Origin: Bispira polyomma
Lineage: Eukaryota
Direction of reading: 5' to 3'
Assembly: GCA_965649765.1 (NCBI GenBank)
Contig: OZ287752.1
Span: 54,560,001 to 54,624,000 of the forward strand
DNA length: 64,000 nt
The notes beneath the pieces were generated by a model. That model saw nothing but the letters and a program-made list of their open reading frames with translations. It made no database searches and had not been told where the DNA came from. This document shows, in pieces, positions 221 through 22,789 of the stretch. Made by a program: the position numbers and the translations under genes. Numbering within the stretch: position 1 is the first letter of the stretch; the number at the start of each line of letters is the position of its first letter.

Positions 221-1967
221 CTGTTAAAAGCACTGACACACTGTTCTAGTGTATGCCACTGTCAAGGTCATACATCTATCACATATTGTGGAATATAACG
301 CACTAATGATCCTCTAACTGTTGAACTGTCTTAGTCCAAAGTCACAGAAACCACTAAGGTCATGGCCACCAGGAAGATACAGAATAGAGTCAGGATGTAA
401 CTGGTAAAAACCAGTTTACATCAAACTCAGAGTTCAAAACTGAGAGAAGTGAACCCTCCTGGTGGCTATTCTATTGTCTCAGTCACTTATTGTGTACTTA
501 TGCGCCATTATTGATATCAGCTATATCTTCAAATGGACAGCATAAAGCTCAGGGTATATAAGGTAACACGTAAAGCTATATATGTTACAGCGAATTACAT
601 TCAGTCAGTGATTTCGCAAAATCCCTGATACATAATGTACTTTTTACACTTATTGAATGGATTTTAGGGAATTTGTGAAAGACACTAATTTTACTTTCTA
701 GTTAGGAAAATACATTAGAATCCAAAGTGAGCGAATTAATAATAAAGTCATAAATTATTGTGGGGTAATATGTTTTTAATCATTTTGTGAGTTCAGGAGC
801 ATCTGGTTCTGTAGAATACATATGAAACTTTCTGGGAAAAGACATACTTTAAAATAAAGACTAAATATAAAATTCAACCAGAATATTTGAACATACAGTG
901 AGCATTTGCATGTATTCATTAAAAACTTAAAACTCTACATGTGTACATACATTTTAAATAATCCATCATAATGTAAGAAACCTCTGAGGAGGTTGAGCTA
1001 GATGTCTTCTAGTGAATTACCGACAGAAAAGGATGTTGAATGTGGACTTCTTTATATTATATCCTAAAAATATGTTGTTTATGGGTGCATTATTACTCAG
1101 GGGACAGTTTTATATCAATTTTCCACAATTTTAAGTTACTTTACCATTGGAGCATATGACTACATAAGCATTGCTGGTCATCATAAGACTAATTGTATTA
1201 TCACATCTTGGCCAAGGCTATTCATCCCCAATGGTGGCATTACCAGGCACACTAGTGCCACTCAAACGCCAGCCAAGCTTCTAGGCCACTCTGCCACACT
1301 TCATGTAGTTTTGTGATAGACATGGTTATACTTTTTGTATTTTGCTTTTGTACTGTGAATTTATATGTACACATTGTGAAGAATTTGATGAAAAAGAAAA
1401 AAACAAATAAATTCTATTTCAGCCTCTAAAATATATCTAACTATGTATAAACAGAACTATGGCAAGTACGCGATGGAGTTATGAATAGCTATTTCCATTC
1501 ACAGAATTAGGCAAAATAAGAAAAAATATTGAGTTTTTTAGTTTTTTGTCTGCGAGTCAATATAGGTTTACTGGTACAGTTCACAAACTAAATTGGCCAG
1601 ACAATATATTCCATTATGCACTGGGAGTTGTAAAAGTGTTTAACAATAAACTTCTGGTATGGGATTATTATCTTATTCATTGAATTTTTAGCATGGGTAT
1701 TGTAGTAACTTATATAGGTTGTAGAGAATCAAATATTATATCTTCGGGAAGACAAATAACTACATTTCTAATAGTTTCATAAAATCAACATATATCATAT
1801 ATTAGCTAAGAACATTTTACACACTAAAAACTGATAGAGATATAATACCAAATTTTCAAATAATTAAGCATTTTAAAGTGTCTGATTAAATGGTGCAGAC
1901 ATATGCGAATTGCACGGTTATATTATCATTTAATAAATGTACTGCTGTCTAAAAATCTTTCACTTAC

Positions 1968-2157
1968 TTTAATCAGTTGCTGTTTGTTTTTTGTTACAGT
2001 AACATGGCGCAAAGTTTAGTAATGTGTCAAATTGGACAATTCTGAATCTGTGAGTATACTCCTTCAGATACAGACAAACTGTAAACCAGCTCCTCCAATC
2101 ATCCTTGTCCTAAGCTACCATGACTCTCAGAAGCAGTAAGGAAACAAGAGACCACCT
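1968..2157 (-). other. Candidate spliced non-coding or 3'UTR exon
   Basis: Acceptor tacttctacag|G and donor AAA|GTAAGT on the minus strand. All three frames are closed. Confidence 0.35.
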
Positions 2158-2176
2158 GTAGAAGTATTATTTTTAT

Positions 2177-2430
2177 GGGCCGTGGTGGCCTAGTGGTTAG
2201 CAAGCATTGCACTTCACAATCACTGGTCTCTCACCTCTGGGCGGCGTGAGTTCAACTCCCGTCGATGCCTATGTGGGAAAGGTGGTAGTTCCTTACTGTG
2301 GGCCCCTGGTTTAAGTGCAGAACCTTGACCAACTGTATGCAGTGTTTCCTCCAGCGTTTCCAACTACCCGTCCCAATATAACCTACTAGAAGGTACTAGA
2401 GTGAACGTTAAATATCTAAATTCAAATTTA
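2177..2430 (+). mobile_element. tRNA-derived SINE, family A, full length
   Basis: A box TGGCCTAGTGG (2186-2196), B box GTTCAACTCCC (2250-2260), AAATTCAAATTT tail. Possible TSD TATTTTTAT at 2168-2176 and 2438-2446. A second family member lies at 18095. Confidence 0.85.
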
Positions 2431-3406
2431 AGAGACATATTTTTATCAGAACCATTTATACAGTCCTATAAAGTGACAATGGTCGCCATAGGTAGGCAAT
2501 TGATGTTATTCGATGGTATAACCTGTATTACATTGCTGGAGGATAGAACCTGGGACTTTCTGATCACATTGCCCAACTCTATATCCACAAGGCTATGGGA
2601 GACCTGCGACTAAACCATAATATCAACATATATATCCTGGTATATCTTTGACATATATTTTTTGTATATATTTAAATTCAAGAAAGAGTTCTGTTTAAAA
2701 GTATTGTGACATTCTTGGCCATTTAGATAAATATTGAAAACCATTCCGTGGTAATTGAGGTTAAGCATAAATGTGAGTTTAAAACCTTTCCAAAATATGG
2801 CCTCTGATAACTTTGACCCACTATATCCAAAATACAAAACTGGTTGTTTCAAGTAAAGGTCCAAATGTTCATAAAGTAATGTGAATGATAAAATTTACTC
2901 TACATTGATAAAATTACTGTTGTGTGGCCTATGTGTATATACATGATTAGAATGAAATTATATTAGCAAGCTAATATATCATTTATTGTAAAATGCGCTT
3001 TTATTGGAAAAAATTATTATATGCATATATACTAGTTATATTATATAGACATTTCAATGATATCTACTAAAATATAGCACAGAAATGCAACAATAAATAG
3101 TATTGGGATGATAAGGTCAAAATTAAAGGTCAAAAAGACTCAAACCGAGGTCAAAGTATGAAAACTGCCGCAAATGGTGTGATCAGGGAATAACAACAGG
3201 TAATCATTACAGTGTGGTTAGAAAGTATATAGCTCAATATAACACTAACACGTGCACGCTTCGACTTCTTTCCTTACGACTTTGCTATATCCATGGACTT
3301 AATAATTACATCAATGATTCTGCTGTTACGCTTTAGAAGATGCCTAGCATCAATAAAGAGTGTTAAAAATTCATAATAATAGTAATAATCAGAACTAAAA
3401 CAGAAT

Positions 3407-3464
3407 TTTATTCAAGATATTTGGAGCATTATACGATTTTATTACATACATTCGGGAATTTATT
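3407..3464 (-). terminator. Candidate polyadenylation signals for the ORF transcript
   Basis: Three minus-strand AATAAA (plus-strand TTTATT at 3407, 3438, 3459), 280-330 bp after the stop. The AT-rich background makes chance occurrence possible. Confidence 0.35.
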
Positions 3465-3740
3465 TAGGAAAGTGATATCCTTCTTCAATGATACAAGTAG
3501 ACTATTCAGGTATAGAAAGGTCCTTTTAGTGTACTTGTATATATCTACAAATATCTTCAAAACACAACATGCAATAAAACAAATCCAATCTACAGAGAAT
3601 TACTACTCGTATCACATCGAAGGTTATTTAAGAAACATCCAATTAATTAATTGTGACTTATTGTGCTACTTGATAAAAAATAAAAATAAATATTGATTGG
3701 TTTGATGGGTTGAATGTTTGTGACCCAGACACCTTACGGT

Positions 3741-4340
3741 TTAGGACACATTGTACTGTATCCTGTCGAAATTGTCTGTCATGAACCTATTCAAGGGAGG
3801 CTCCAGTGAGTTAATGATCTCCTGAAAGCAAATTTCTGCAGCAACCATATAGCCCTGCAACTTCAACTGTTCACGGATGTAGTAATCAATGGCCAGACAT
3901 GTAAACACAAAAGAACTAATCAAAAATAGCCACATCAAGCGAAATGTTGATTCCTCTGCTGATTTTTTCTGTGACACCACATCCATGCACTGGTTCGCCT
4001 GGATAGAGAATTCCAATTCCAGGATGTTGCCCCAATCCAGCTTGCATGTGTACAGCTCTTCCGCCTTCCCATGGTGTAACACCCAGATTTTAAACAGTCT
4101 TCTGATAAGCATCCACAGCCACCCAAATAGGTTGTTGTCACCTCGGCTGTTCCATTCATGTTCGGTCCCACAGGTTAGGCCATATACAAACTTGCCAAGT
4201 ATTGTCAACACTCGTCGTTGAAGTATGATTTCACAAGCACGATCGGGTGTATCCTGACTAAATGCATAGTACGAAATCATGCAACCAATTACCACTGCTA
4301 AATACCTGAACAGTAGAAGTTGTTTTCTAGTAAATGTCAT
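3741..4340 (-). CDS. Orphan 199-aa predicted membrane protein (N-terminal signal/anchor, 4-Cys loop, second TM), copy 1
   Basis: By far the longest ORF in an AT-rich unit. ATG at 4340 in AAGATGA context (the track starts two codons earlier at GTG). Hydrophobic segments LLLFRYLAVVIGCMISYYAF and LMWLFLISSFVFTCLAI. CpGs retained, TGACG cluster upstream, three minus-strand AATAAA about 300 bp downstream. No family recognised. Confidence 0.7.
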   Translation of the reverse strand: MTFTRKQLLLFRYLAVVIGCMISYYAFSQDTPDRACEIILQRRVLTILGKFVYGLTCGTEHEWNSRGDNNLFGWLWMLIRRLFKIWVLHHGKAEELYTCKLDWGNILELEFSIQANQCMDVVSQKKSAEESTFRLMWLFLISSFVFTCLAIDYYIREQLKLQGYMVAAEICFQEIINSLEPPLNRFMTDNFDRIQYNVS

Positions 4341-4404
4341 CTTCACTTGTGCTACTATGATAATTAAGCAAAACTGACACGTATCTATGTAAAATGGTTT
4401 TTGT

Positions 4405-4471
4405 CGTCATAAGTTTGCAATCATGACGTACACAACGTCACACCATGACGTATGTATCCATTGTGACGTCA
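4405..4471 (-). promoter_or_regulatory. Cluster of CRE/ATF-like sites, putative promoter of the 199-aa ORF (also at ~27214-27280 and ~50517-50584)
   Basis: Five TGACG cores in 67 bp: CGTCA 4405, TGACGTA 4424, ACGTCA 4435, TGACGTA 4446 and a perfect TGACGTCA at 4464-4471. They lie 65-130 bp upstream of the ATG. Confidence 0.5.
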
Positions 4472-4794
4472 TTTATGCCTTCTCGTTTATTCTCACATGT
4501 GAGGACAATTATAAGTACATTTGACTATGTATGACTCCATCTGTTGCAGAATTATTCTATGATTAGTAGCAGCATTCAGAATTTTCACCAAGTAGTATGT
4601 CGTTGTTGTTTTATATTTCAAATATGAACTAGAATCTAGTTTAAGATATTCTAAACATAGAACATATAAAGACGTTTGAACAAAAACAGAACAGGCGATT
4701 CAGCTAGAAGATGACGTATGTGTTTGTAGTTTGTCCCTTAATATTTAGGAAAGAAATATTGATCACATAAATACATCTAGTTAAGGGATAATGT

Positions 4795-4911
4795 TGGTGA
4801 GTTAGTCAGGTACTTGCCATAGGTGAGTGGTTTCTTCCGCTATTGAATCTGGCTTTCGTGATATGAGCTAAGCTGTTAAAAGCGACGTAAAACGCAACTA
4901 AATTCAAATTC
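4795..4911 (+). mobile_element. 3' fragment of SINE family B (present in each unit)
   Basis: CAGGTACTTGC...TTTCTTCC...AATCTGGC...GATAT...AAGCGACGTAAAA...AACTAAATTCAAAT matches the 3' half of 17641-17848. Confidence 0.65.
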
Positions 4912-5882
4912 TTATATGTCACTATAATAAATAAAAAATAGTAAAAAATATAATGCAAAATTGCTTTCCACAGAAATAACCATGTTTTGTTATGTTTTCT
5001 TTTTCTGAGTCTAGCCAACTTCCAGTTCCTTTAATCAATGGAATGGAAACTGTCAAAAGTTTAATTCAGGGAAATTGCAGGTTTTCTTAGTGAAAAGTTC
5101 CAACAGTAGAAAATTTAATCTATGGTTTTAGAATGATTACTAAAAATAATTATATGTTTCTCATTAATGGTGTTTATGGATACTTTCAAAGATATTTTGC
5201 CATTTAGCCCATTTTATAATGCATTCTGTCAGTGTACAAAAAGTAGACCCATTGGTCTGATTGGGTATACTGTTAGTGCATTTTATTGTACTCAGATCAA
5301 AGCCTGGGAAATTCCTAGCTAGTTGTTTTTTGGGATATAATCCACTACAAAACCATATAATCATGACCCCCCCCCCCAGCCCCCAACCCCCCTCTGTCAG
5401 AGAGTAATAAATTAAACTACTTAACCAACCACAAGAAAGGCATTAAGTGAATCCTCATAGGTAACATTATGTATCATTGTGGTGTTCTTTTAATTGTGGT
5501 TTAATCTTTCCATCTATCCAAGCTGTTAATGTACAATGGTAGTATGTAGTACATAGGGTGTATCCAGAGGGTGTCGAGGGTCCAGGCCCCAGAGCCGGGC
5601 TCCGGGTCCAGGAATACCTATCTAGGGGGCAAGGCCCCAGATACAGGGGATGGTCCAGGGGCTGACCAAACATGAATAAAACAGTCAAATTTCAACAATT
5701 ATGTTAACAATATACTCTAAGAGTGAACCTAAGACCTAGATCCGATACATGGTGTATTTTAGCATATTAACTGTACCCAAGTGTATATTAAAGTTTAAAT
5801 CATCCTCTTTAGAGGTATAGTCCGTTACCAAATATACCAAATAGGGGGTAACTCAGCATTGGTAAAATAATGTATTCTCAGT

Positions 5883-6022
5883 ATTTGAATTTAGTTAGGT
5901 TTTAGTGTCACCTTAAAAAGTTTCGAGTTTATATCAAGATGGTCAGACTTAATGATGGAAGAAACCAGTGCTAAAGCACTTTAAACCACCAGCTTATGGC
6001 AAGTACAAACTTTCCCACATGT
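5883..6022 (-). mobile_element. Diverged SINE 3' fragment on the minus strand (present in each unit)
   Basis: Reverse complement reads ATGTGGGAAAGTTTGTACTTGCCATA...GGTTTCTTCCATCATTAAGTCTGACCATCTTGATATAA...AACTAAATTCAAAT. Confidence 0.6.
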
Positions 6023-7679
6023 TTCTTTGTCAAATGTAATAGGTACACTATTGTACATGGAAAATAACCATTCTGTCACATACTTATTATTAAAAAATTG
6101 CATTTTGTATGTGTAAAACAACAGCTTAAATCTATATAGTTTGGTGTTTTCTTTTCTGAAAATGGAAGAAACAATTGTGTTTTATCTCCAAATATCACAA
6201 ACCTCCTTTCTCCTATCAGACTATTCTTTTGCTCATTGTTTGGAATATGCGCCACAGAGGATGCCTGGTCATCAATTGTGGAACTATAGAAGTCAACACA
6301 TTAACATTAAAACATATCTTTCTTTTTGATATTTTGTCCTCAGTTTTTGCCCTTAACTATATGTGTACTCTGATAATCCCATGAGTGTAAAAAAGGCTAA
6401 TATTGGTACATTGTTTTGTTTTACAATTTTAAGCTCCATTGTCAGGCTATCATATTATATAAGTACATTTGTAATACCTACTCATAATTCCTGTCAGAAG
6501 GAATCTAGGCCATGCATTCATTGGGGATTACCCCACTATCTAACTATATGCATTACATATCATTGACGCCCCAAAAAGGCATCAATTGCCTGAACAATTT
6601 TCTTTAAGTGAGTGTAATAGGATTACCTTACTTTTACACTTGTATGTATTTATGCGGTGGTGCTTTCTAGCTTGTATTATAACAATATGTCCGATAATGC
6701 CATGTACAAAAATAAAATTCTCTTTTTTTACATTGACCGTATACCAACTTTCAAAATTTCACTATAATTTTTCCCTCATTCTATGATGCATTTTTTCCAG
6801 TTTATCCATTCAATATGGCTGTTACAATTGTTACTTTCAGAGTTTGGTGTTAAATCCTGGGAGGGATTTGTACATATAGCAAAATTATTTTCATTTCTTT
6901 TTTTATTAAAACAAAAATCATCTCTTTCTACACGATTTGATATGTTAAGATATTAATGTAATCTTTTAATGCAATACAGGTTATATGGCTTATTTAACGA
7001 TAACAGAACATCCATGACGAGGTGACCAAACATGGTTAAATAACAGAAGTCTGCTGGTGTATCCTACAAATATGAAACATTACTTGGCTATTCCTGATCT
7101 CACGAGAGGTCATTTCTGGGGAGGGGGGGGGGACAATTTCGAAGTTAATTAATTTATTTTAAATAATGCTTTTATATATTACTGTTCAAACATATTTAAC
7201 TTAAAAAATAAGTCTGATATGGGAAGAATTTTAAGCAGTACATGTGAGTTTATTTTTGCCTGCAAAATGAGACATTTGTGAGGTGGGTCAATTAACTTCA
7301 GATCACCTGCCCTATCTTTAAAGCCGCCATGCATATGTAGTAATGAAAAAGGTGCTTTCTGTTCATTCTGTTTTTTTAAATAAATGCACATGTAAAAATG
7401 AATCACACAATAAATTGAAATTGCAAGGCACAGCAATCAACAACAAAAAGTAAATATTAAGTCAACCACAGACATAGGAAGTTTATTTGGCACCTGCTAG
7501 TCTCTGATTTGCTTTTTATTTCTGGTTACCAGTCACGTGATTAGTAAATAGAATAGTATTTGTGAAGGTCAAACATACGAAGAAAAAAAAGGTCTAGCAG
7601 AAATGAAAGAGAAAAGTATCTATTTAACCCAAATATTGATAATATTTATTTGTGCTTAAGAACATATTTATTTTCTGAA

Positions 7680-7930
7680 TTTCTCTCCCAGGTCACCATT
7701 CATATTTCTCTTTCTATAAAACGTAAACCTGAGTAGACTTTGATTTATTTGTCCTACAAAGTTCTGTATACAAGTCCAGATTACTCCATCAAGTGTTTGA
7801 CAACCACATACACACAACCACTGTAGGTCCCTAGCACTTCCTTGCACTCATTTGTCTTCACAAACTGGTGAGATCTGACCATGGACAACATTCCTCAGTC
7901 GTCGAGTGGATTATTTACGCAACTTTTATC
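7680..7930 (-). mobile_element. Possible highly degenerate Tc1 transposase N-terminal (HTH) remnant, present in each unit
   Basis: PLDD*GMLSMVRSHQFVKTNECKEVL...KHLME*SGL loosely resembles the Tc1 pattern TPRDDRxIxRxVxxxxFxTAxEI...RRLxESGL. Confidence 0.3.
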
Positions 7931-9888
7931 TGAGCTCTCTAACTTCTGAGCACTTTACCAGTTACTAGCTACTAAAAAACTACTATATATCGAATCTACA
8001 GTTTTATTTTATATCAATCAATCTCTTTCTGGTACAATTCTGTAACAGAGTAGTATGCAAAAACAGCTTTACAATTTCTATATTTCTATCTTAACATCAC
8101 ACATTTGGTAATATTAGTTTTCAATTTTTATAAACACGTATTTCATGTTTTACATTTATGAGCATTTGACGATAATGATATTTTAGAACATACATTCAAA
8201 AGGTAAAAGTGTATTTTACATGCACAAGCAAAATTCAAACAAAAATATAATATTTAATGGCCAAAAATGTTGATCAAAAGTGTTTTCGTGGTACTATTAA
8301 GTTCTAAATCTATTTTAAACATCACTAATATTTGCCACAAAAAAACATAGATTTGAAAGAACACTGAAGATAAACATGTACTTTAACAAACATAAATATT
8401 TCATGTGTATTAATTAAATATTAGTCAAATATATATATTTTTTAAAATTTTGAAGCTAAGTAAAGGAAAAGAGAGTCCAGATTTGATAAAATTGCCCTAC
8501 TTTTTGACTGATGAACTTGCTTATCAGTTATTACTCATTCAATATCACCTAACATTTCACAACACACACAAGACCCCCCTTTCAGTACACAACCGTGAGA
8601 GCCACTTAGTAATTCCACCCACCAAGTGAACTGACATTTAATTACCATATAACTTCATAATATTTGGTAGAGAAGCTGAGGTTTTGAATGACAGCTGTAA
8701 TGAAAGCATTGAGCTAGGCTTTCACCATTATACAAAAGCTTGAGAAACCTATTTGTCCCAGGTTTATATAGGTTTACATCAACATCATGCTTCTTGTTCA
8801 TCAACTTTCAGCAAAATATGCAATCTTTTGGCATTTCCTGTTACATTGCCAAAAAACACCTTCTCTTTCAAAAATATGGAAGTTACAAAGTCAAAATACA
8901 AACATACGCAAAGCTTTACCCAAACATACATTGCTGCATATCAAACGTATAGTGGTTTTTAGCAAATGATGAATGATTAAATTTTGCACAAAATGTGTAT
9001 GACCAAAGCTTCCGATATTTGTTAGGGTGTTCTCTACTTGAAAATAGAGTGGCGTTATCCGGTTCCCAAACCTCACCTACTTAGATTACATCCTTATTGT
9101 ACAGTTATACTTATACATATATAGTTGTGTCTAAAATGCCATTAATTCTAAGATCCTTTTTAAGATTATTGGAAAATAGTAGACACATATTTCAATCGGA
9201 AAGTGCCAGGTTTAATTTAATTATTGTAAGACTACTTGGGGTTTATACAAATTCATTACGGAACATAACACCATAGCAATATTTTATATGTTTACATATA
9301 TCATAGACATACGCACAAATATACCATATAATATAGACAATGTGTCGAAAAACATGGATGGTTACTACTGATTGTTCAACATGTTTGGTGCTTTTAAAAA
9401 AAACTGTATGTTTTAAAACGTTATCACCATGTGAGTCATAAATCTTCAATATAACCTTACTATTAGTCTTGCTGAACAACAAAAGATTGTTTCAAACATT
9501 ATAGCTTTGTTTTACTATATTTCAGAGTTATAATTCATACCACAAGACTCAGTTACTGCTATGGTAGTCATGATGATAATACTGACATACAAGTTAAGAG
9601 AAGTAAGTCAACTATAACACCTTAGGTAAATGTAAACTATATCTACTAAAACACTTGTCGTCCAGCACAGAATGAATGACAACAATAACTATTTATAATA
9701 TGTCTGTGAAGTTCACTGGTATCTGTACATTATCTGAGATCTTGACATATAAAAACCATTCTTATTTCTGTAGACAAGTTTCATTTTTCACATTAGACCA
9801 AATGTGCCGCTACATGTATTATTTACAATTATGCTTGTTGCCTACTTCTAGTTAAATCTGTATAGAATCATTGCAGTCCACGTGCACC

Positions 9889-10088
9889 GCCCTCCAAAAT
9901 GGACGCTATTCGCCCCCCCCTCCCCCCAAATGACCTACTTATAAAACAGCCCATTGGTTGAAAATATCCCCTGCCTCCCGTTCTTTTAGATGAATGATTT
10001 CATAGTCCTGTCCCTCCAGCATGGCCGCCATTTGTTTATTTCCCCTACTTATATAACAGCCCATAGGTTGAAAATATCGTCTGCCTCC
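9889..10088. repeat. Duplicated module containing YY1-, TATA- and CCAAT-like motifs
   Basis: 9934-9978 matches 10044-10088 at 41 of 45 positions. Each is preceded by CCCTCCA..ATGG.CGC.ATT. Confidence 0.75.
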
Positions 10089-10881
10089 TTTTTTCCAGGC
10101 CGGCAGCTTTCTCAGTCTCTTCCTGTTCCCTATGGACCACTATCTCCACACTTTCTCTGGGTGACAGGTACCTGAGATTGACCACATCTACTGGACAGTT
10201 CAGACTGTCTAGCCTGGCATGTAAACTAGCCTTTCTGGTCTCGGGATTGGGTTGTTTCAAATCCATTCTGCACTTTTTGTTGTACATATTACTATCACCT
10301 TTAAGAAGAGATAAAACAGCTTTTTCTGTTAACAATATTGTTATAAATTCACAACCACACTGAACAAATATTTTTATACTATACACTTGCAACAGTATTT
10401 TGCACAAGTTAAATTTTCTTGTAGTTTAATTATATTTTTACGAACAATCCCTGAAACGTTTGTTCTCTAGCATTAAACAAATGTTGTTTTTTTTTATCAC
10501 AATTGTTTGTTTAAATAGCTATCTATCTAACTTCTATTTAGTTTATTCTTAAATAAGCTACCAACACCACACGATGTTCGAACATAGACACTCTGATTTA
10601 CTCAGAGCATTGTGCATTGATGGAGCATAATATATATGAAACTGATGGCATTGATGGACACAAGAGTAAGTAATGAGAGTTGAGTAAGACATTCAGCCTT
10701 CTTCACAAAACAAAAGCATGACTGGATGTGTTCATCAAATTACTGATTTATCTGGACCACATTTCTGCTTCCTTTCAAAGACCTCTGGGTATAAATTGAC
10801 CTTAGCATAATTTTTACTTTTCCTGGTTGAGCATTGCAAACTTGGACAGATTCCCTATAATGAATATGGGAGTACTATTTA

Positions 10882-10886
<5 letters not shown>

Positions 10887-10933
<47 letters not shown>
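10887..10933. repeat. (TA)23 microsatellite
   Basis: Direct read. (TA)18 at 33721-33757 and (TA)15 at 56766-56796. Confidence 0.95.
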
Positions 10934-10935
<2 letters not shown>

Positions 10936-11346
10936 GGTATTCTTCTCGCTGGGGTCATCCGGGTGGTTAGATAGGCTAGGCTAATATTCTCAAAAAAAAT
11001 TGTGAGGCAGAGGAAATTCACATTCGATACAAAAGCCAAGGTGACACTTACGTCTAGCAATAAGTAATTCAGTAAAGTGGTATGTTCGCTTAACCATGAT
11101 CAACATTACAACCTTACTGAAAAATAATGGGCGTTATAATCCTCTTGGTGAGCATTCTGAATATCTATTTTTTTTTTTCAAAATGACTGTCAAGTTGTAG
11201 AAATTGGTTTAGTGTTGGTATTAATAGAAACATCATTTCATTAAAAAAAGGGATTATAATTCACACAAATTAAGGCAATTTTTGATACTAAATAAATAAT
11301 AATTGTAATGATAGTTGTCACCTGATATAGTTATGAACAACACTGT

Positions 11347-11612
11347 TATTTAATGTGCTATGACATTATTACCCCACCCTGGGTTCTTCTACTTGTCAAA
11401 TAATAGTTCACTCTCAGCTCCCTTAGGGAGAATACTGGCCATGCCGCCACACATACAGAGCACAAACACCACTTTAGTGGCCAGGTACCCATTTATACAC
11501 GTGGGTAGAGAGGGACAACTTCGTGCATATTCCAAGGATAACCAGGCCAGCAGCGAGCATCGAATCTCGACCTTCACATCCAAAGTACACTCTAACCAAT
11601 AGGCCACAGAGT
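11347..11612 (-). mobile_element. tRNA-derived SINE with CORE-like central domain
   Basis: Minus strand: A box TGGCCTATTGG, B-box-like GATTCGATGCT, then CCCTCTCTACCCACGTGTATAAATGGGTACC, which resembles the conserved central domain of invertebrate SINEs. Confidence 0.7.
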
Positions 11613-11616
11613 GGTT

Positions 11617-12200
11617 ATAATAATAATAACAATAAATATATTATATAGCGTTCAACTGGTACATAAGAAAAATAAATAAAAAAATTCTGTGTTCTCTGGC
11701 GCTTGTCTTCTGAAATAAATGAGCTTTTAGCTGTTTGCTGAATAGGTTGTGGCTGTCTGTTTTTCTGAGGTAGTCTGGATGAGAGTTCTGTGAGTTTGAC
11801 CCAAATACAGTAAAACTACAGTCAGCAAGTGTCGGAACATCCAATAGATAGTAGTGTTTTTTTTCATCTAACAGGATAGTCGCAGTTTTTTTTTATTGAA
11901 TTCGATTCTGTTAATATCTCGGTGCTTTCTGGTGAATACATTTATGGACTGTTGTCAAAATTGAAACAAAATTCTGTAGCGAATTGGAAGCTAGTGGAGT
12001 GTCTTTAGTGCTCTTGAACTACTAGTGTTATTTGTCTTATTTTAGCACATGCTTTGCTGCTGCATTTGGCAATTTTTGCATCATTTTAGTCTATTTCTCA
12101 GGCAAGGCCATAAAGATATCATTGCAGTAGTCCAGATGGAATAGAACAAGGCCATACACTACTTGTTTGCATTCTTTTGCATTTGCATTTAAACAATTTA
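11617..12200 (-). mobile_element. Degenerate L2/CR1-clade LINE 3' end (ORF2 C-terminus)
   Basis: Frameshifted translation: KQVVYGLVLFHLDYCN..., LKTLH*LPIRYRILF..., TLADCSFTVFG..., PDYLRKTDSHNLFSKQLKAHLF. Ends in CGCTATATAA plus a (TTA)n tail. Confidence 0.85.
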
Positions 12201-12728
12201 AGTTGTTAATACAAAAAAATGTGTCAGAGGCACTAACAGTGGCATACTTACAATATAAACTATTTTGTGAATATCAATTAATGCTGCACACACTAATAGT
12301 GATATTCCATTAATTCCCATTGAACGAAAATATCCGGCAAAACATCACCCCCATCTTGTATATAAGGATTATCAATTGGGCCAAGAAGAACCATCCATCA
12401 TTAGATTAGAGTCTTTATCAACGAAAAGCAGGATTTTTTGTCTCCTTTTTTGTTTTGTTTTATTACACCCCACAGCAGCTGCAAAACGTTATACACCCCA
12501 CGATGACTCTCTGAAGAGACAAGGAGAATCAACAAAAAAATGATTTTATTGTTTCTAAGCAGCATTGAATCCTACCAATACACACAGGTGTTTCCCTTCC
12601 ACCAATTTATCACACTTCCCCATAGACATCTAGCCTTCACTAAGGCTCAGAATGTGCCAGAAGGCCACATATAGAGATAGCTATTTTGTATAAGAGACCT
12701 AATGGCTTTAACATTCGCTTATGGGTGG

Positions 12729-12801
12729 TCTCCTATGGTCTACTGGTTAGGAATTTGGTCTGATGAGCAAAAGGTCCCCAGTTTGACACCTAGTTGGCGG
12801 A
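12729..12801 (+). pseudogene. tRNA-like relic or isolated SINE head (present in each unit)
   Basis: TGGTCTACTGGTTAGGA is A-box-like and GTTTGACACC is a degenerate B box at tRNA-like spacing. The stems do not pair fully. Confidence 0.4.
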
Positions 12802-13149
12802 GTTGGTCTGTTGAACAGGATATACTGCCAAAGTTGCAATGTCCATTTGGGATAACATTCGCTTGCAAGATATGAACACGTCATTGTTTACTGATGATGT
12901 TGACCAAGGCTATGCTGTAGGATTATGCATTCTGTAGAATCAGCATCATAGAGGGTGATATCTCAATAGGATGTGATATAAATGTTCAATAATACTAAAC
13001 TAAACATGAACCCAGGGAACCATTTAAAATGATGATCCTCTGTCACTTGGGTCTCATTCCCAGTGGCAGGCTTATAAGGACCTTGTGGACATTGATTAAT
13101 GGTGTCATCTTCAAGTTGCAGTCTTCAGGTAGGTTCACAACTTTGCAAG

Positions 13150-13740
13150 AACTAGAATTTAAACGCATCAATTGCAACATTAATTGGCAAAACTCTTTAA
13201 TTTTGCCAGATATATTACTTTGGGGGTAAATAGACTTTGACTGAATGGCATTTGAAATAGGTCGTTCTAGTTTGTAAATACAACACACTGTGTATATGTA
13301 ATTCTGCAGTACAGTCACAGCCAACAACCAAAAGATGAGGCCATTGCATTATTAGAATAGGGAGCATGGTTGTGACCAAACGAAGATAATGGAACAGTCT
13401 GTCTCCCAGTACATAAATACACCTAAACCAATTAATAATTTAAATTGACCTACCCACTAAAAATGATGGTACAATAATAGCATACATTGTGTACAGCATT
13501 ATGGAGTGGATGGCATTTTGGGTTTTCAACATCTTAAATGAATGCCAAGCAGCTTCATTGTAATGATGTTAATGGTTCTTGGGGCGCTGCTGACAACCTG
13601 TGATGCCTGATAAAAATTATTGGTATTTGTATTCACAGTTACAGTCCGTGCAGTATCGGTCATTATCTGCCAACCTGACGATTTAGATGAGGTAATAAAA
13701 ATTTGGCCCAAAGGTCAAACAGGTTTTTTGGTGTAGAAGC
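13150..13740 (+). mobile_element. Possible degenerate Ty3/gypsy aspartic-protease region (present in each unit)
   Basis: Ordered fragments INCNINWQNSLILPDI (~ING...LLDTG), TVTANNQKMRPL (~TANG) and VDGILGFQHLK (~DGILGxDFL), with stops and frameshifts. Confidence 0.35.
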
Positions 13741-15559
13741 AGTTTTGACCTGTCTGTTATTAATGTTTTAATTCTGTTTGGTTTAGTACTAACATAGATT
13801 GATGTATATTCTTTTTCTTACTGTCATTAAATTGGTACGCTTGGGTGTACTGGCATTACTGCTTGCTACACCCCTGTAATAAAAGAGATCTCAGTTTTAT
13901 CAGCCGAACAATATCGATTTTAAGAGCTGATAATGTCATTATCAGCTGTGAATGATAAATATGCACAACTAAGGAGCCTGTATTGACATGATAATCTGTT
14001 AGTAGCGCCCTGCTTACTGGTATCATAGTATTTATTATACACCTACTAATATTGTATATACCATAATGAGTGATAATATTGAAAACCTCAATTTATATAT
14101 ATTAACACAAAATTGTCAAAAAGACATTGTCAAAGTATCTTGTACAAGTGTGGGAAAAGCGTAAGGAAATTTGATCTAAACAGTTGTTTCAAGGTTGATT
14201 TAGAATTGGTTACATACATGTATAACAAAGGATTTATGAGTATATAATATGACCAGTAAAAAATGTATATGTGTTTAAAGTGACATATAAGCCCAAAAAT
14301 TGTATTTTTTTTTAATTACATGTCACTATAATAAAAATATATATCTATCTGCATCACTTAATGCAAATCTAATGCACCTACCAATGCCCTAAGGCCCCAA
14401 AAAAATGAAAATAAAATTCTTGGATCTGCCTGGATCACCCAACGAAGTGTCATGTTTGCTGTAAACAAACGGTAAAAACAAATCCTTATTGGCTGATGTA
14501 CTAAAGATATAACACATTCTGTCACCTGGCTTTTAAAAACAACTTAAAATGACCGACTACACGACACAACAAATATGTATATATAGCCTGCTCCCGACAC
14601 GACATTACACAGCAATTAAACTTGGAGAAATCTCTTCAAAACTGCTGTGTTGTTGTTTATATCGTACAGTATCCATATGATGTTTATATATACAGCTGTT
14701 GTTAATATGTATTTTATATGGATTATGTAGTGGTGTTTCATGTAAACAGTACTGTTGTGCCTTGACGTGTCGTCCCCTGTAGTGTAGTACAGTGCCTTGG
14801 TTTCTAAACCCCTGTTTCTGCATAGTTGAAAGCGATGTAAAAAACCAAAATTCTGACTGAGATCTTTTGCTTATCCCTGTGTTTTAGCCCAACGATAGTT
14901 ACCATAAGCAATATATTGCGCATACAAATACTGTTCTTGAAAATTCAATAATCAAATACAGCAGATCTAAAGGCTCATAACTCAGTCAAGGCACCAACGG
15001 GACAAGAACATTTGTTGTTTTATGTAATCCTAAGGTAAAGATCGAAAGAACAGAGACAAAACATCACCTCTTTGTCAGTTTAATATCCAATGTTTTTTAG
15101 TCTCTAACAGACTCTAAGAACTGGTATAACTTATGGTTTTTATGTAACAGACAATTTCACCTTCTGAACATCAAAGTGCCCTGAGCAAAGTTGCTGTGAC
15201 TAACCTATCTGTGAACATTTAAAGGAATCGTGATCAGTAGAAACAGAGAGGAAGTTCTATCATTTATTGAATTACATTAGGCTTTTTTTTTTTTTTGGTG
15301 AATGCCAAAATTACAAGTTGTACTGCCTAAAACGCCTTTGAATCTTTACCTTTTCATCTTTTTTGTGAGAACTGTAAATAATTAGCTTGAACAATAAACC
15401 TAAAATAATAAAGTATTAGGTAGCCTTACGTGCACTGTTTCAACAACAGCACCTCTTATATATTAACTAAGAATATGAAGACCATGAAAGAAAACATATT
15501 AGGAAATACTAATATTTATACTAAGTTAAAAGCTACACCTATATACACACTGAACAGTA

Positions 15560-15829
15560 GGGCCACCTTTAACAATTTAAGTTCAGTCACTTAAGGTGAC
15601 TTTAAATTACCTTAGGTTACTAACTTTGTGGTGACCTTAAACCGAGGTCACCTTAGCACAAGTTAAGGTTTGATTCACTTTGTGTTGAATGTATAAAAGT
15701 ATGTGGTCATCTGTGGTGACCTTATACTAAATTAAAGTATTGTTAACTTACCAACTTTTTAGATAAAGTTAACTTTAAATACATGAAGTTAAGTCTAAAT
15801 ATAGATTTACTGCTCTATTGAGGTGGCCC
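15560..15829. mobile_element. MITE with terminal inverted repeats and internal palindromes
   Basis: TA|GGGCCACCT...AGGTGGCCC|TA (11-bp perfect inverted repeat including the TA). Internal hairpins AGTCAC-TTAAG-GTGACT and GGTGACCT-N7-AGGTCACC. Confidence 0.7.
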
Positions 15830-16199
15830 TAAATATATAACTTTGAGAAATTGTAAAAATATAGATATATGTAAAGAAAAGAAAGAGCCCCCTTATGACC
15901 AGATGTGTTAGCTAATGGCTAAAACTTAACTCAAACTAGCAATAATTCTTCAGTCCATGCTACAGCATCACTTAGCTCACTAGAACCTTACATGACTGCG
16001 ACAGCCCGTTGTTACATCAATCATCATGGCCAAACTATATTATGCAAACATATATTTTTCTCTTGACTGGCTGTAGTAATCCATGTTTGCCTTGCGTGCT
16101 TTTGGCTGCTTTGAGTATTATTGGATCACTTGTTGGAGCCAGGGTGTGTGAAACTACAAACTACCTGTGAAATATAGTTTACAATGTTTAAACAAAACG

Positions 16200-16375
16200 C
16201 CAAATTAAAACGCAATATGCAAAATTGTTACACTTTGATTCAAACTAAACCACTCTTTGTCAAATTACACCATCCCCCAAATTGCAACCTATTGTACCAA
16301 ATTACTTCATATCCTTGTACCATATTATGACACCACTTACCAAATTAAAATACAATGTGCCAAACTAAAACACAT
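16200..16375 (+). repeat. Degenerate ~20-bp periodic array with CAAATTA core
   Basis: Cores at about 16201, 16220, 16241, 16261, 16278, 16298, 16321, 16341 and 16361. Confidence 0.75.
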
Positions 16376-17640
16376 TTAAAATTTGAACGATGATGATAGC
16401 TCATGTATCCGTTATGTAGACAGGTGCAGGTCGACACCATGGAGACGCTGGGAAGCTGACCCATGGAATGGTGGAAAAGCCTTGCTAAACAGACAGGTAT
16501 TGGACATCTGTATGAAACAGGGCAGAGAGGCAGAGTGATTCCACACGTTAAGAAGCATCATAAGCAAAAGTATGCTTGAAATGTGTTATTTATTTATGAA
16601 CTGATGGATTAAAAATTTAAAAATTGCACCTAATTTGCCTGGTATTGTGTAAACGTGTATGAGGAGAAAGGTGTGGGCCAAAAATGCTGCAGTTAGAAAC
16701 TTGTAAATTAAATGACTGTTTTAAAGATTGAACATTATCTGCCAAATTAAAACACTTGTTTACACTGGAACATGGACACACACACTGTTCTATTCTATAA
16801 TTTTTTTCTGTGAAGGTCATACACCTGCCATATATTGCCTGATATTCCTGGTGCACTATCATAGTCCAGAGCCAAGGCAATATTTTAAGAAAAAATACTG
16901 TAGTACTTCAGGCAAGTATGGTTAAATAAATGTTTGGTGAAATAAAAACTTCTTTTACTTTACAAAAACGTAAGATATGTGAACTAATTTCAAGAGGAAC
17001 TGAATTCCAAAGCAGCCATGTTACGTGACAAAATGAATTCCACACCTGTTCTAGTCAAACTTGGAGATATTTGACACATACTAAATGATGATACATATTA
17101 GAGTATAATGAGAGGGATATGTCATAGGTTCTTAAGAGCTCTTCATAATCAAATGTATTTGCTTTTTCCAATAATACTCCCCCCCCCCTCCTGCATTTAC
17201 TAAGGCGTCTAAGTCACTGTTTTTTCCTGAACCAAAGTGAAAGTAAATCCCAAAGACAAACAGTAAGCAAGAAAAGCAAAGAATTAGAGTGACACCAAAG
17301 AAGGCTTGTAAACTGAAACTCTCCTCACAAAGAGAAGTTTACTGTAAGACCTTGTATTATTGTCACCCTGAGAAACTGTAACTCTGCACAGTGTAATTGT
17401 ACTTCTCTTTGGGTAAATGGAAAATAATACTGTAAAATTAAAGACTGAGCATGTCTACCTTATGGTAAAGTAAAGAGTGGGCTTCCGATGATATAATAGA
17501 TGATCATCGAAAGGAAAGCCATTCTTCAATTATCAATAGTGTACAGGGCCTTTATTTTTATTTTAATGATTTCTGTTTGAGCAATTTTTTCTTAAATTTC
17601 ACATTCATGGGGTTCATGGTTCATGGGCTTCATGGTTCAT

Positions 17641-17848
17641 GGTGGTGGACTAGTGGTTAAATGTGTTAACTTTACAATCACTGGTCTCTCACTAAATTGG
17701 GTTCGAATCCTGCTTGTTTCTTTGGGTGGGGAAGTTTGGCAGGTACTTGCAAACAGGTCATTGCTTGCTTCAGGTACGATTTCTTCCACCATTAAATCTG
17801 GCAGTCATGATATAACCTAAGCGACGTAAAATCAAACTAAATTTAAAT
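17641..17848 (+). mobile_element. tRNA-derived SINE, related family B (V-SINE-like body)
   Basis: A box TGGACTAGTGG, B box GTTCGAATCC. Shares ACAATCACTGGTCTCTCAC with family A. 3' body TTTCTTCCACCATTAAATCTGGCAGTCATGATATAACC...GCGACGTAAAA...AACTAAATT. Confidence 0.75.
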
Positions 17849-18094
17849 ACACACACTTGCCAGTAATTTAACACACTGCACACTTTCTTTTTGTAATTTT
17901 AAGGAAACACTAAACTTAATTTTACGATTACCATATATTAATAGTCTTAATGCAGGGGCATGTGTAGAAGCTTGTGTAGAAGCCAGTACGCAAAAGCATA
18001 CCAATTTTATGACAGAATGAGCCCCCCCACCCCCACCCCACCCCCAACGAATTTATGTTAGTACAAAAAAAAACAAACATAATAGTTTGATACA

Positions 18095-18330
18095 TTAGCA
18101 AGCATTGCGCTTCACAATCACTGGTCTCTCACCTCTGGGCGACGTGAGTTCGAATCCCGTCAATACCTATGTGGGAAAGGTGGTAGTTCTTTACTGTTGG
18201 CCGCTAGTTTCAGTGCAGAACCTTGATCAACTGTATGCAGTGTTTCCTCCAGCGTTTCCAACTACCCGTCCCAATATAACCTAAACAGGTACTAGAGTGG
18301 ACGTTAAATATCCAAATTAAAAAAAAAAAT
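18095..18330 (+). mobile_element. SINE family A, 5'-truncated, A-rich tail
   Basis: Aligns closely with 2197-2420 from TTAGCAAGCATTGC onward. B box GTTCGAATCCC present, A box missing. Confidence 0.85.
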
Positions 18331-18439
18331 AAATAAATATAGAAGTAAAACATTAACATTAAATTGGGGTATACCAAATGAAAAATCCTAACTACTCCCC
18401 TGTAATGTTATGGAAACTTTAACATATGAATTGCAAAAA

Positions 18440-18915
18440 AATGGGTTTGTCCAATTTTTACCTAATATTAGGTCGATTAAGCACCTTTGGTTCACATTAG
18501 CGATACTCTTTCTTCAATAGATGTAAAATCATCAATTTAATTGAACTGAAACAAGCTTTACAGGAAATGTGGAAAACTTTACCCAATACTTTGGAGGCGA
18601 ATGTTCAAAGCCTGCCTCGAAGGATGGCAGCTAATGTACAGACCAAGGGGACAGACCAGAGGCTTTGATAAAAAATACTGAAAAAATTAGCTTTTTTAAA
18701 AATATCATTGATTTGGTTTGTAACTTAAATTTAACAGTTGTGAAGTTTGTTTTAAATGTAGTTTACTGTAACTGTGACAACTGTAATGCAAAGAAAACTT
18801 TTAAATGAAAATCATACCTACATACATATATATTAACAGATAATGTCTCAAATTTATTAAAGACTTATATATATAAAATTTGTTCAAATCTAATCTACCA
18901 TTTTTAGCAACGCTG
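18440..18915 (+). mobile_element. Tc1/mariner transposon 3' remnant
   Basis: PNIRSIKHLW resembles SPDLNPIEHLW. It is followed by NLIELKQALQEMWKTLPNTLEANVQSLPRRMAANVQTKG, resembling SMPRRxxAVIxAKG. Ends TTTTTAGCAACGCTG|TA, like a Tc1 right end with its TA target. Confidence 0.8.
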
Positions 18916-20995
18916 TATATAATTCTAAACTAATTTAAAGGAAAATTCAATTTTTTTATCTCACATTTTCAGCTATTTACTGTACTAAAATCAGGAAGTA
19001 CATTTATCCTGCCCTATCTCTTTTAAGACCCCTCTCTTCTGTCTTTCTGGGGGGTATTGAAATGGAAAGATTTGCAGTACCCAAACCCAGTGGCATTAAT
19101 AGGTCTAAAGCCCCAACTCAAATTGAGATAGAGTGTCCTGTGACGGTTTGATCCCCTCACTTGTAAAGTTCAAATAGCTGAAACTTGTGACTTCCAACTG
19201 CAACTATCTTACTGTGGGTGATTTCAGCTTTGCCTACCTGAGCATTTCTGGTGTAGTTGTTGCCTATGTATTTGTCGTTCTTGATATTTGGTATTACATT
19301 AGAAAATATATAAGGAAAATAGCACTCAGTAGAGTGCAAACCTCAACCAGGGTGGTCCAAAATCCTAAATAGGGATGTGATTTACTTAGTTATAGACCTA
19401 AACCCGCCTGAACTCAGCCATCTCAATAGTATAATGCAAAGTAGATCAATAACTTATTTGAACAAATCACCCATTTCTTAGTAGTTCTTAGTAAGATTAG
19501 GTAAACCCTCATATATATTGAATACTCTGTTCAAGATTTGATGACTTCTGTCTTACCCCACTATAGGATTTAACCAAAATTAGTTGAGCAGTATTTGTGT
19601 AATGATGCAGAAATTTTGGTCTTACTGAACTTCAGTTATCCTACAGGGTTATTTCTCACTTATTGGCCCGGTGGTGCCTTGGTGGAGTGAACCACTAACA
19701 AAATTTGTCCTAGACTTTCACAAATGTTTTGCATAAAATCTGTGATTACCTCAGTGAGATTGTGGTGGTCCAGCCAAACGCAGAAAAATAAAGTATGGAT
19801 CAGTACAAAAAATGATGAGAATATGGAAAAATTGTAATCTGGCACCATTCACCTTATTTTTTGTGTGTACAGATTTGGTAAGGTGTTTGTGGATTCCCTA
19901 ACGGTGGCCCTGAAATTTAGTAAGATGCTACTACTGATAAAACGAATAAATGGTGAATCACAGCAACTTGTAAGGACAGACTAAGGTATATCTCCATGGT
20001 TTCCTAAAGCATATATTTTATTAGGATACCAGCATTTGTTTTCTTGCACATTCACCACTCGGGTTGTGACCTAATTGCTTGCAAGTATTATCCTATATGG
20101 TGAAGTTTAAGTTACTTCTTTGACCTTGCAGTGTGTGAAAGGTCACGTTATATGAGTAGGGTAAGTTATGAAGCTGCTGCTTCTATATGCAACTTTCTAT
20201 ATGTGTCATTTGAAGGTTTAAGTAAAAGTGACCAGCAATCTGTATCTGTTAGGTGATTGGTTAATGTAGAGTAATCAATTGGTTGGCAAGCAATTTTACC
20301 TTAAAGCTCTATATTTTAGTTACTGAGGTGCCATTCCACTATTATTACAACCTTAGCAATCAGTAAAAAATTTGCTTTCAATCCCAAGTCCAACTATCAT
20401 GGTTTTAAAACCAGGTTGATTGTGGTTTTAAAACCATAAATTGCCTTGACCGGGCCTCCAAGCCATGGATACAACCCTTGTGAAACCATGGAGCCCCCTA
20501 ATGATCACAGGCAGATGGCTTCCACGCTGGAAATGTTGGGCATGCTCAAAACTGCTTTGGATCTTTCACGGTGAATCGTATCAATGATTAACCACAGTGA
20601 TACACACTGATTAGCCCTAATCGCAGTCACAAACCTCATCAACCCAAATTAACCATGATTGGTCTGGGTAAAGTCTGTGTTGCTGTTGTCTCAAATGTAC
20701 AAGCATTTGTCTTACTTTATGACACCCCCGTGACACCCTGATTTACCAAGGTAAGCCTGGTAAACCCTGACTGGCAAAACCATAGATCAACCCCTCATTT
20801 GACCCTCTATATCCATTCCCACGCCATCAGAGTTAGTGTACTTTTTAAACGATCTCTCGCGAAAATGATACGCTGTGTATGGTGTGAATGATGGCATTAT
20901 TGCCAATATGGAAAGTGACTGCATTGCTCCCTAATGTAAAGTTGTTGAGGGTTTTTAATCTTTGAATTTTAAGTACTAATCTCAAGTAGCAGTAG

Positions 20996-21128
20996 TTTAG
21001 TATATATTTAGTATTTCTGTCTATCTGAACAACAATTCCTTTGCAAAATCCCAAAATTTAGTATTTAGTATATATTTAGTATATCTGTCTATCTGAACCA
21101 CAATTCCTTTGCAAAATCCCAAAATTAA
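20996..21128. repeat. 68-bp tandem duplication (also at ~44299-44431)
   Basis: TTTAGTATATATTTAGTAT..CTGTCTATCTGAAC.ACAATTCCTTTGCAAAATCCCAAAATT occurs twice, starting at 20996 and 21064. Confidence 0.9.
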
Positions 21129-22789
21129 TTTATGTCTTCCCTGAGCAATATGTATGAAACTTATGTAAAAACTGTGCTAGGATTTAGCTAAATCTTGATA
21201 TTTTACCATTTATCCTTCCCGAGAAGAACACAAGAACAATTCCGTTTTTGTGATTACCAAATCAGTTAATATCTTAACTAAGCAAAACATATCAACCTTT
21301 AGACAAACCTAAGCCAGGATTTGGTTAGAACCATACATCTGGCATTATGTCCTGCCAAGGAATGACATTTAGTAAATCACCAAACCCAACCATTAAACAT
21401 ATGACTGACTTATGTGATATAGAGTAACACGTGACATGTTAGCAGACAGTGTAATGACTTGAGAGGTCTCTCTACTGACGTGCTAGTGTCATTGTCTTTA
21501 TGGGATATATATGATATGTGTGGGAGTTATCAGATGGTTCTTAAACTCATACTCAAAACCCAAAGCTCACATACATAGACTTTCTTATGTAATTGATATA
21601 ACCTAACCATGTTACCATGAACCTTTGAGTGAGGCATTCAATTATGCAGTCCAGTTTTAGATGTCTTTATTATACACAGAGATACTGCAGCACATGTAAT
21701 GATACATTCTTTTCTTAAATTTAGCACATTTATAAGGACCTTCCCCTTGGGAGATAGGTACGGGATGTTAGTTTATTAGTGTAATGGGGATGGAGACAAA
21801 ATTGGCCTTGTAAGAAGTTATGTAGACAGGCATGATAGACAGTTTGGGATAGCACGAGATATACTGGGCCAGCATCAGTTTTACTGGCAAAGCATTTCAG
21901 CATTTTCAAACAGTCAGTTCAGCAAGTGAAATTAATTGCTAATGCAAAAATATGTCACTTAAAGTTCTAAAATTTGCAATAATATATTTATCAGATATCA
22001 TACAAGAAGAATGGTTCAGTGTTTGTCCTACATTTCTTTTGCATACTTCAGGACAAAATAAGCCAGGTATGTAAATACATGTACATGTAACCTAAGACAT
22101 TGGATGACTTGACTTTATCACTAAGTCATGTGGTCATCCTGGCCTAGTTGCTAGGGAGTTGGTTGGGTTGTGGATAAGACCCAGGGACTTAAACTGTTAA
22201 TTTCTGTGGTCATCTAAGCCACTATGTGTCTGCCTGTTCCTGCTAGCCCTAGATTGGGATCGTACCCATGTCCTTGGTACTTGTAAGTGAGTGTGTTGCC
22301 CGATTAGTATTGTATTATATATATTGACATCAGTTTGGAACTCAAACAGTTGTACTTTTTAAGTAGCTTTAAACATTCAGGTACAATGAACTTTTTTAAC
22401 AAGGTCGCAAGGTAAAATGCTATTGTTTAATTAATATGGTTAAGTTATCAAGCCTGCAACTTTTAGCAAGGCTAACTGTGCTTATGGTGTGTAGTAAGAG
22501 ATTTAACTGGTGACCCTTATTGTTGGCTATTATTGTCATGGTCAATAATCTGAAGAAATGTAACCAGAATTTACTCAGAAACAGATACTTCTGAAACTAT
22601 AGCCATCGGTCATAGATACATAAAGATAAATGAATCAGATTCTAACCATGTCTGCGAGATTACTTGTTATCTTGGACTAGTTGATTTATTTGTCTAGAAC
22701 ATTACCTTACAATAACAGTAATTAAGGTACCAATATCTATCGTAACATAATAATTGACACCAAAATAGATTAAATTAGATATTTATATC

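Follow-up and report, generated by a model that had tools for sequence, protein, structure and literature searches.

A kinase-less member of a four-cysteine, receptor-like protein family carried in a dispersed block with (TA)n ends in Bispira polyomma

The window analysed here, a stretch of 64,000 nucleotides from Bispira polyomma, raises the question of what kind of protein is encoded by an intronless open reading frame (P0001) that the first-pass annotation had been unable to assign to a family, and of how near-identical copies of it came to lie at many places in the genome. We found that P0001 belongs to an unnamed family with kinase-fused members, and that its gene sits inside a dispersed duplicated block.

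The window gene and its ectodomain

Units of ~23 kb, 99.5% identical to one another, are repeated in tandem across the window, which carries the gene three times; the left end of the array lies beyond the window, at G000:C5:54437069. The features of the gene are as follows.

3741..4340, minus strand: intronless ORF of 199 aa (P0001), ATG to stop, a short (kinase-less) family member
4260..4322, minus strand: hydrophobic segment, residues 7-27, signal peptide or signal anchor (hydropathy; model helix 5-27)
3966..4256, minus strand: four-cysteine luminal or extracellular domain, residues 29-125, with C36, C57, C99 and C118 (conservation, model)
4077..4130, minus strand: Trp-rich amphipathic helix, residues 71-88, its hydrophobic pattern retained family-wide
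3888..3944, minus strand: predicted transmembrane helix, residues 133-151 (hydropathy)
3744..3881, minus strand: cytosolic tail, residues 154-199, of two divergent types in recent copies
26550..27149, minus strand: second tandem copy of the ORF, two amino-acid differences
49853..50452, minus strand: third tandem copy of the ORF, two amino-acid differences

The ORF is very probably a real gene of the four-cysteine family. Much of the first-pass description of it held: the coding sequence is free of introns, running uninterrupted from ATG to stop over 199 aa, the segment LFGWLWMLIRRLFKIW occupies residues 71-86 of ORF 3741-4340 (minus strand), and the C-terminal tail, put at ~48 aa, measures about 46-48 aa. 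The four loop cysteines are present, although two positions lower than numbered there (36/57/99/118, not 38/59/101/120), and the two hydrophobic segments, placed at ~9-29 and ~137-153, peak instead at ~7-27 (Kyte-Doolittle 19-mer 1.5) and 133-151 (2.0). As for the proposal of a two-TM protein, the second helix (133-151) stands, whereas the first stretch may be a cleavable signal peptide instead of a second membrane helix; residues 26-29 read A-F-S then Q, a candidate cleavage site under the -3/-1 rule for signal peptides. The chain stops 46 aa past the membrane helix without a cytosolic kinase, and P0001 itself is thus not a receptor kinase.

When 25 family members at 14-89% identity were aligned, C57 and C99 proved invariant and C118, G54, L55, Y97, W103 and F111 were at least 90% conserved, as was C36 across 19 members; all four cysteines and the pattern G-L-x-C / Y-x-C-x-L-x-W are conserved in the family. 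Over residues 29-125 dN/dS was 0.19, 0.19 and 0.45 against older short paralogs. The family ectodomain has been under old purifying selection.

The ectodomain was predicted to be ordered beta-alpha-beta-alpha-beta-beta-beta, and a model (pLDDT 66, pTM 0.42) folded it, including the Trp-rich helix, into a small alpha/beta domain whose best VIA match gave Z 3.7 (rmsd 2.5, 48 aligned). With this model, at pLDDT 66, Foldseek returned no match at E 0.001 in PDB or BFVD, and neither a new fold nor its absence follows from the fold searches. The model of full-length P0001 (pLDDT 59, pTM 0.27) was matched only along long helices. Searches of Pfam gave P0001 a single hit at E 0.15, below the cut-off, and the ectodomain is covered by no Pfam family; a profile search of PDB gave 0 hits to E 10, a word-index search passed 0/37 candidates, and matches to the family pattern were confirmed in 0/9 cases in viral contigs and 0/13 in metagenome contigs. 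The Trp-rich stretch has a hydrophobic moment of 0.65-0.73 (11-mers starting at 74-78), among the highest of the protein, and residues 42-52 reach 0.75, above it.

Kinase-bearing members and the upstream region

A search of the genome (1.04 Gb in 75 contigs) yielded at least 72 matches to P0001, a lower bound. Full-length matches at 72-100% identity numbered 37 of the 72, spread over 12 contigs, and 36 of these 37 recent copies were free of internal stops; the other 35 matches were more distant or partial, with stops in 14. By tblastn and alignment, some of the distant matches are the N-terminal part of intronless ORFs of 559-648 aa, which match Pkinase at E 1e-42 to 1e-44. These paralogs begin with a hydrophobic stretch and the four-cysteine domain; past a membrane helix come cysteines and basic residues, and a charged linker then leads to a protein kinase. 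Kinase and ectodomain lie on the same chain in P0002, P0003 and L099. Five kinase-bearing loci were found, three uninterrupted and two broken. Nearest among solved structures are RSK, PKC-theta and Akt, and the structure hits listed for the paralogs comprise RSK, PKC, Akt, SGK, S6K, GRK, PKN and PKA. The kinase motifs are intact (GxGxFG, VAMK, HRDLKLDN, DFG, APE) and the domain has a dN/dS of 0.24, although the activation-loop phospho-acceptor is absent in P0002, where CYGIIGN aligns with AYSFCGT of RSK2, glycine standing for serine. Judged from sequence, the sister clade is the same ectodomain fused to an intact AGC-type Ser/Thr kinase, a predicted receptor-like kinase. Since the kinase lies behind the second helix in this clade, the four-cysteine loop should be non-cytosolic; the basic N-terminus, the loop and the kinase past the second helix together place the domain on the non-cytosolic side. 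Both conservation and the position of the AGC kinase support the disulfide-type luminal or extracellular domain proposed in the first-pass annotation.

A profile search of 1.84 billion representatives brought 11 relatives from other assemblies, two with a kinase domain; the ten that were looked up have ENA records without a protein name. One more relative outside this genome is P0005. The best match of P0013, a relative from elsewhere, is only 31-34% identical in this genome, which argues for its origin in another species or a lost branch. Word matching in a partial set of articles found no paper on the family or the block.

A tree was built from 25 N-terminal modules, not including P0005, P0014, P0016 and several broken copies from the genome. 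A 97/92 branch has the 10 kinase or kinase-linker rows on one side, and short forms are found to either side of the midpoint root. Rooted without an outgroup, the tree suggests rather than shows that the stand-alone form is older and that the kinase was added later. A fresh truncation of a kinase gene as the source of the short gene was rejected on the basis of the tree.

Several loci of the family have features of their own. At L099:3061-3891 (minus strand) a 276 aa intronless ORF with two hydrophobic segments, its own CRE cluster and no Pfam family stands head to head with a family kinase. The C9 kinase has a 665 aa intronless Mab-21/cGAS-like ORF (L112:1377-3374, plus strand) about 21 kb away. 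At L024:4091-5485 (plus strand) the back half of the gene continues in frame into a LINE reverse transcriptase, an arrangement present in four tandem ~5.9 kb units on C11. Nested arrays at G000:C1:36159110-36390085 hold 5138 bp units with the gene inside larger repeats; they contain 12 gene copies, one with a stop.

Upstream of the window gene, two features were noted.

4405..4471, minus strand: cluster of six CRE half-sites including TGACGTCACAA, likely proximal promoter, kept upstream of short and kinase paralogs
4372..4377, minus strand: TCAGTT, which we take to be initiator-like, 37 nt ahead of the ATG, with a similar T(C/T)AGTT at the aligned position in most paralogs

Three to six CRE half-sites lie within 300 bp in 13 of 17 family upstream regions, start positions being approximate for broken copies; the other four (L037, L100, L123, L129) have 0 or 1. 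Two of these four are kinase loci, L100 and L123, where no CRE half-site was found in the 300 bp before an approximate start. As background, 1.7% of 4752 windows held at least three half-sites, family copies among them, and a composite CRE pattern matched the genome 63 times against 4 for the control. The cluster is not specific to the family: it also precedes three other long intronless ORFs of no family. Long intronless ORFs behind this cluster were noted at L042:2-886 (minus strand), L178:8131-8829 (minus strand) and L238:654-2285 (plus strand), the one at L238 having a helix-hairpin-helix domain at its start. When 25 CRE sites outside the family were read, several turned out to belong to YR retrotransposons and other repeats; two stood ahead of signal-peptide-like exons and two ahead of long ORFs, but no recognisable sperm gene followed any of them, and a sperm-specific reading of the cluster was rejected. 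An intron of the 5' UTR just before the ATG was likewise rejected, the upstream sequence being the conserved CRE cluster. In mammals, CRE clusters mark spermatid genes, and by analogy we infer that the cluster may mark germline expression here. Testis kinases are often intronless (PMC7401350).

The dispersed block and its recent copies

The gene lies in sequence shared with other contigs, delimited in the window as follows.

350..10885, no strand: right part of the dispersed block, which copies on other contigs match at 95-99%
10862..10933, no strand: right end motif of the short form, with the (TA)n run that ends the shared block
10934..23321, no strand: local flank, which at this locus shares in the tandem amplification of the block

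The local flank gave no match longer than 400 bp in four other regions compared. Recent copies have at least 8 kb of flank in common at 95-99%. In C2 and C8 the block measures ~31-33 kb. In C4 and C12 it reaches ~68 kb, a YR retrotransposon and other cargo standing there in place of what follows window position 7682. This is the pattern of a core duplicon: interspersed copies more than 90% identical, with variable flanking modules.

The ends of the block were located by end motifs, so that copies without the motifs fall outside the counts. All 12 left ends examined, with nine different flanks, lie at a (TA)n run, as do 7/7 short right ends (five flanks) and 3/3 long right ends (two flanks); the left end in C6 and the right ends in C7a, C10, C13 and C14 are elsewhere or were not located. 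Runs of 8 or more TA occur about once per 33 kb in the loci examined, a density inflated by the choice of loci near block ends, so a random end would touch one ~0.5% of the time. In two whole blocks scanned, runs of 9 or more TA stand solely at the ends. Exact matches to the 25-nt left motif number 12, and those to the short right motif 19, against 0 for the control. Between the block ends neither inverted nor direct repeats were found, only chance matches of 12-16 nt. In C2 and C12 short inverted duplications are present around the left TA run. Past the left run, C12 and C14 have more than 40 kb in common, including an alpha-tubulin-like ORF, and beyond the right run C6 and C12 share ~17 kb. 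The four outer ends checked (C10/C14, C6/C12, the C5/C7 kinase pair, C11) are not at TA runs. Local comparison of flanks among the loci compared revealed no empty site, and the flanks of older kinase loci have no sequence in common with this block.

A Pfam scan of 135 ORFs (56 + 79), which may miss small exons and copies that act in trans, revealed no transposase belonging to the block; what it did match were a RING remnant, fragments of MFS and sulfotransferase genes, weakly a CD225, and nested pieces of hAT, LINE and YR elements. The idea of long terminal inverted repeats in C10/C13 was rejected, the inverted piece being a high-copy repeat, and transduction by a Helitron or Helentron was rejected because the high-copy repeat near the left end, presumably HINE-like, starts at nt 32, inside the block.

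The cargo includes exons of a CD225/IFITM-like gene (L049:9551-L050:1075, plus strand), although their Pfam E of 0.044 does not reach the cut-off. Near the left end a RING finger precedes an endonuclease-like remnant (L049:5753-6903, plus strand), and the long form holds MFS transporter exons (L082:3585-9103, minus strand) and a sulfotransferase fragment (L051:5637-5852, minus strand). Near the right end, at window 10045-10287 (minus strand), an 80 aa ORF of no family occurs only in block copies (21 matches, 90-100%). A very high-copy repeat of ~230-250 bp lies at window 2197-2426 and, in the opposite orientation, at 18095-18322.

A second dispersed block of at least 20 kb, 96-99% identical across contigs and with about 19 kinase matches, was seen at G000:C5:13929159, C3:98820888, C14:6520491, C9:17162471, C11:36202621 and C1:52789304 (L241-L252). 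Its intronless AGC-like kinase is 411-418 aa long and has a hydrophobic segment at the N-terminus; the block further carries a membrane ORF of 250 aa and an ORF of 222 aa that has CRE half-sites, and is unrelated to the four-cysteine domain. Beside it, at L252:6182-10000 (plus strand), lie fragmented ORFs that we take to resemble a Maverick-type DNA polymerase B.

Comparison of the window with the C4 copy revealed that 65/600 positions of the ORF differ against 61/3835 (1.6%) in the flanks, the divergence peaking on the ORF (6-19% per 200 bp, versus 0-4% elsewhere). Between the two types of tail 26 codons differ, none of them purely synonymously (Nd 28.5, Sd 2.5; Fisher p 0.04 on rounded counts). 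Synonymous sites of the ORF are also raised, to about 9% (p 4e-6 versus flanks), and the C6 copy is a mosaic of both types. In a codon model of 22 stop-free alleles, one of 23 having been dropped for a stop, omega was 2.06 for the tail (p 0.12) and, for the ectodomain of recent copies, 0.75 (p 0.25), near neutral. Recent positive selection on the tail is at most suggested by the two tail tests (p 0.04 to 0.12). A frameshift or A-to-G editing as the source of the tail difference was ruled out, since the changes are mixed, single and in frame.

What the short form may do, and how it may have spread

We propose, tentatively and at somewhat less than even probability, that the window gene is a kinase-less form of the family that likely serves as a co-receptor or decoy for the sister kinases in germ cells, its copies having been spread by break repair at (TA)n. 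The ectodomain would bind a ligand or pair with itself, and kinases without an activation-loop phospho-acceptor would be switched by clustering in the membrane; the short form would join the kinase clusters and tune their signal through its helical tail, the CRE cluster driving expression in the germline. Single-pass receptor Ser/Thr kinases with kinase-less partners exist in the TGF-beta receptors and BAMBI and in plant RLK/RLP pairs. These resemble the present family in a small cysteine-bonded ectodomain, one membrane helix and a cytosolic kinase that some members have and others replace by a short tail, and differ from it in that here the kinase is AGC-type, the genes are intronless and the ectodomain lies outside Pfam families. 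By analogy with these pairs, the short form may be a partner or decoy. It may also act without the kinases, because 37 near-identical short copies stand against three uninterrupted kinases and the short form looks older. The role in cell recognition that the first-pass annotation had entertained fits this proposal.

For the spread of the block, a break at a cruciform-forming (TA)n run would be repaired off a donor run, and copying through to the next TA run would insert the block. Such TA-to-TA copying would explain fixed ends without terminal repeats, the alternative right ends and the extra modules. In yeast, AT/TA repeats form cruciforms that Mus81 cuts and Rad51 recombination repairs, and hairpins at these repeats are processed (PMC12972899); the inverted duplications at the left TA run in C2 and C12 fit hairpin processing. 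The primate core duplicons of LCR16a/NPIP (PMC7419210; PMC6920530) are alike in their interspersed high-identity blocks, variable flanking modules and embedded, fast-changing gene family; their junctions are described there as Alu-rich and GC-rich, whereas here (TA)n ends are reused in a genome of 35% GC around an intronless gene.

Other explanations bear on one or the other half of this proposal. A real rival to the repair step, though not to the reading of the protein, is a TA-targeting transposase acting in trans in the manner of SaTar (PMC5907723): the block would be a giant non-autonomous transposon moved by a MULE-type or other transposase, with the gene as cargo. We consider this somewhat unlikely. 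One fixed left end reused with nine different flanks and the exact motif counts (12 and 19, control 0) speak for it, and MULEs that target TA microsatellites, SaTar and MuTAnT, build modular arrays in plants with (TA)n ends and modules joined at TA runs (PMC5907723; PMC4486113). Those are small non-autonomous elements according to the same sources, however, whereas the block is 31-68 kb long with genes and nested elements and without end repeats. Moreover, its ends lack inverted or direct similarity, its two right ends are unrelated, C12/C14 and C6/C12 share sequence well past the left and right runs (>40 kb and ~17 kb), and Pfam found only nested hAT, LINE and YR pieces in the 135 ORFs. Similarly somewhat doubtful is the view that the short gene is a passenger of a real and old family, its 37-copy burst being neutral hitch-hiking in a physically duplicating block and the tail types old paralog patches placed by gene conversion. 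Synonymous divergence of about 9% in the ORF, far above the 1.6% of the flanks (p 4e-6), implies that the ORF types are older than the block; the C6 mosaic, the non-significant codon-model test of the tail (omega 2.06, p 0.12), the stops in 14/35 distant matches and the RING and MFS cargo ORFs split by stops all point the same way. Against it stand the 36/37 full-length recent copies without an internal stop, the 26 tail codons of which none differs purely synonymously (p 0.04), and the sharpness with which divergence peaks on the ORF.

We hold as quite unlikely that this is a somatic immune or self/non-self receptor family of kinase-bearing signalling members and kinase-less decoys: the receptor-like anatomy, the birth-and-death turnover, the Mab-21/cGAS-like ORF 21 kb from one kinase and the weakly CD225-like exons in the block (E 0.044) would suit it, but the CD225 hit is below the cut-off and the part that changes fast is the cytosolic tail, not the ectodomain. 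More improbable still is that the gene is selfish and acts in the germline like wtf, biasing transmission as a poison, antidote or suppressor, and that the kinases are its targets or responders, although drive would explain amplification, conversion and the fast tail together. According to PMC5478263, the wtf meiotic drivers of fission yeast are dispersed, multicopy membrane-protein genes with frequent pseudogenes, a conserved upstream element, ectopic conversion and divergent types, all paralleled here in population pattern rather than in anatomy, and the second dispersed block likewise carries intronless membrane and kinase genes. The wtf genes described there have several introns and encode many membrane helices, however, whereas this gene is intronless with at most two hydrophobic segments, and recognition genes and core duplicons predict the same pattern. 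Very improbable is the membrane remodelling or fusion that the first-pass annotation had also suggested, by which the Trp-rich helix would insert into the bilayer. The helix has a high hydrophobic moment and an aromatic face family-wide, but the kinase-fused members have it too, and the model puts it within the small alpha/beta domain, possibly as a packing or pairing face; the analyses run gave this role no support.

The proposal of a kinase-less partner also has a more far-reaching version, which we regard as unlikely: receptor AGC kinases of the lineage's own, with a new disulfide ectodomain and a CRE-cluster germline promoter, whose short sibling would be a selfish or conflict gene on a dozen chromosomes, carried in transposase-free (TA)n-to-(TA)n blocks by a general route that would include the second, kinase-bearing block.

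AGC kinases normally reach membranes through lipid-binding domains and are activated when the activation loop is phosphorylated. Animal receptor kinases are not known to use an AGC domain, in which respect the family paralogs differ. If our reading is correct, an AGC kinase wired directly to an ectodomain, with its phospho-site dropped and kinase-less siblings kept, would be a new receptor design. The block would be a core duplicon outside primates with sharply defined, reused (TA)n ends, and with such ends the way in which core duplicons move becomes testable from long-read haplotypes.
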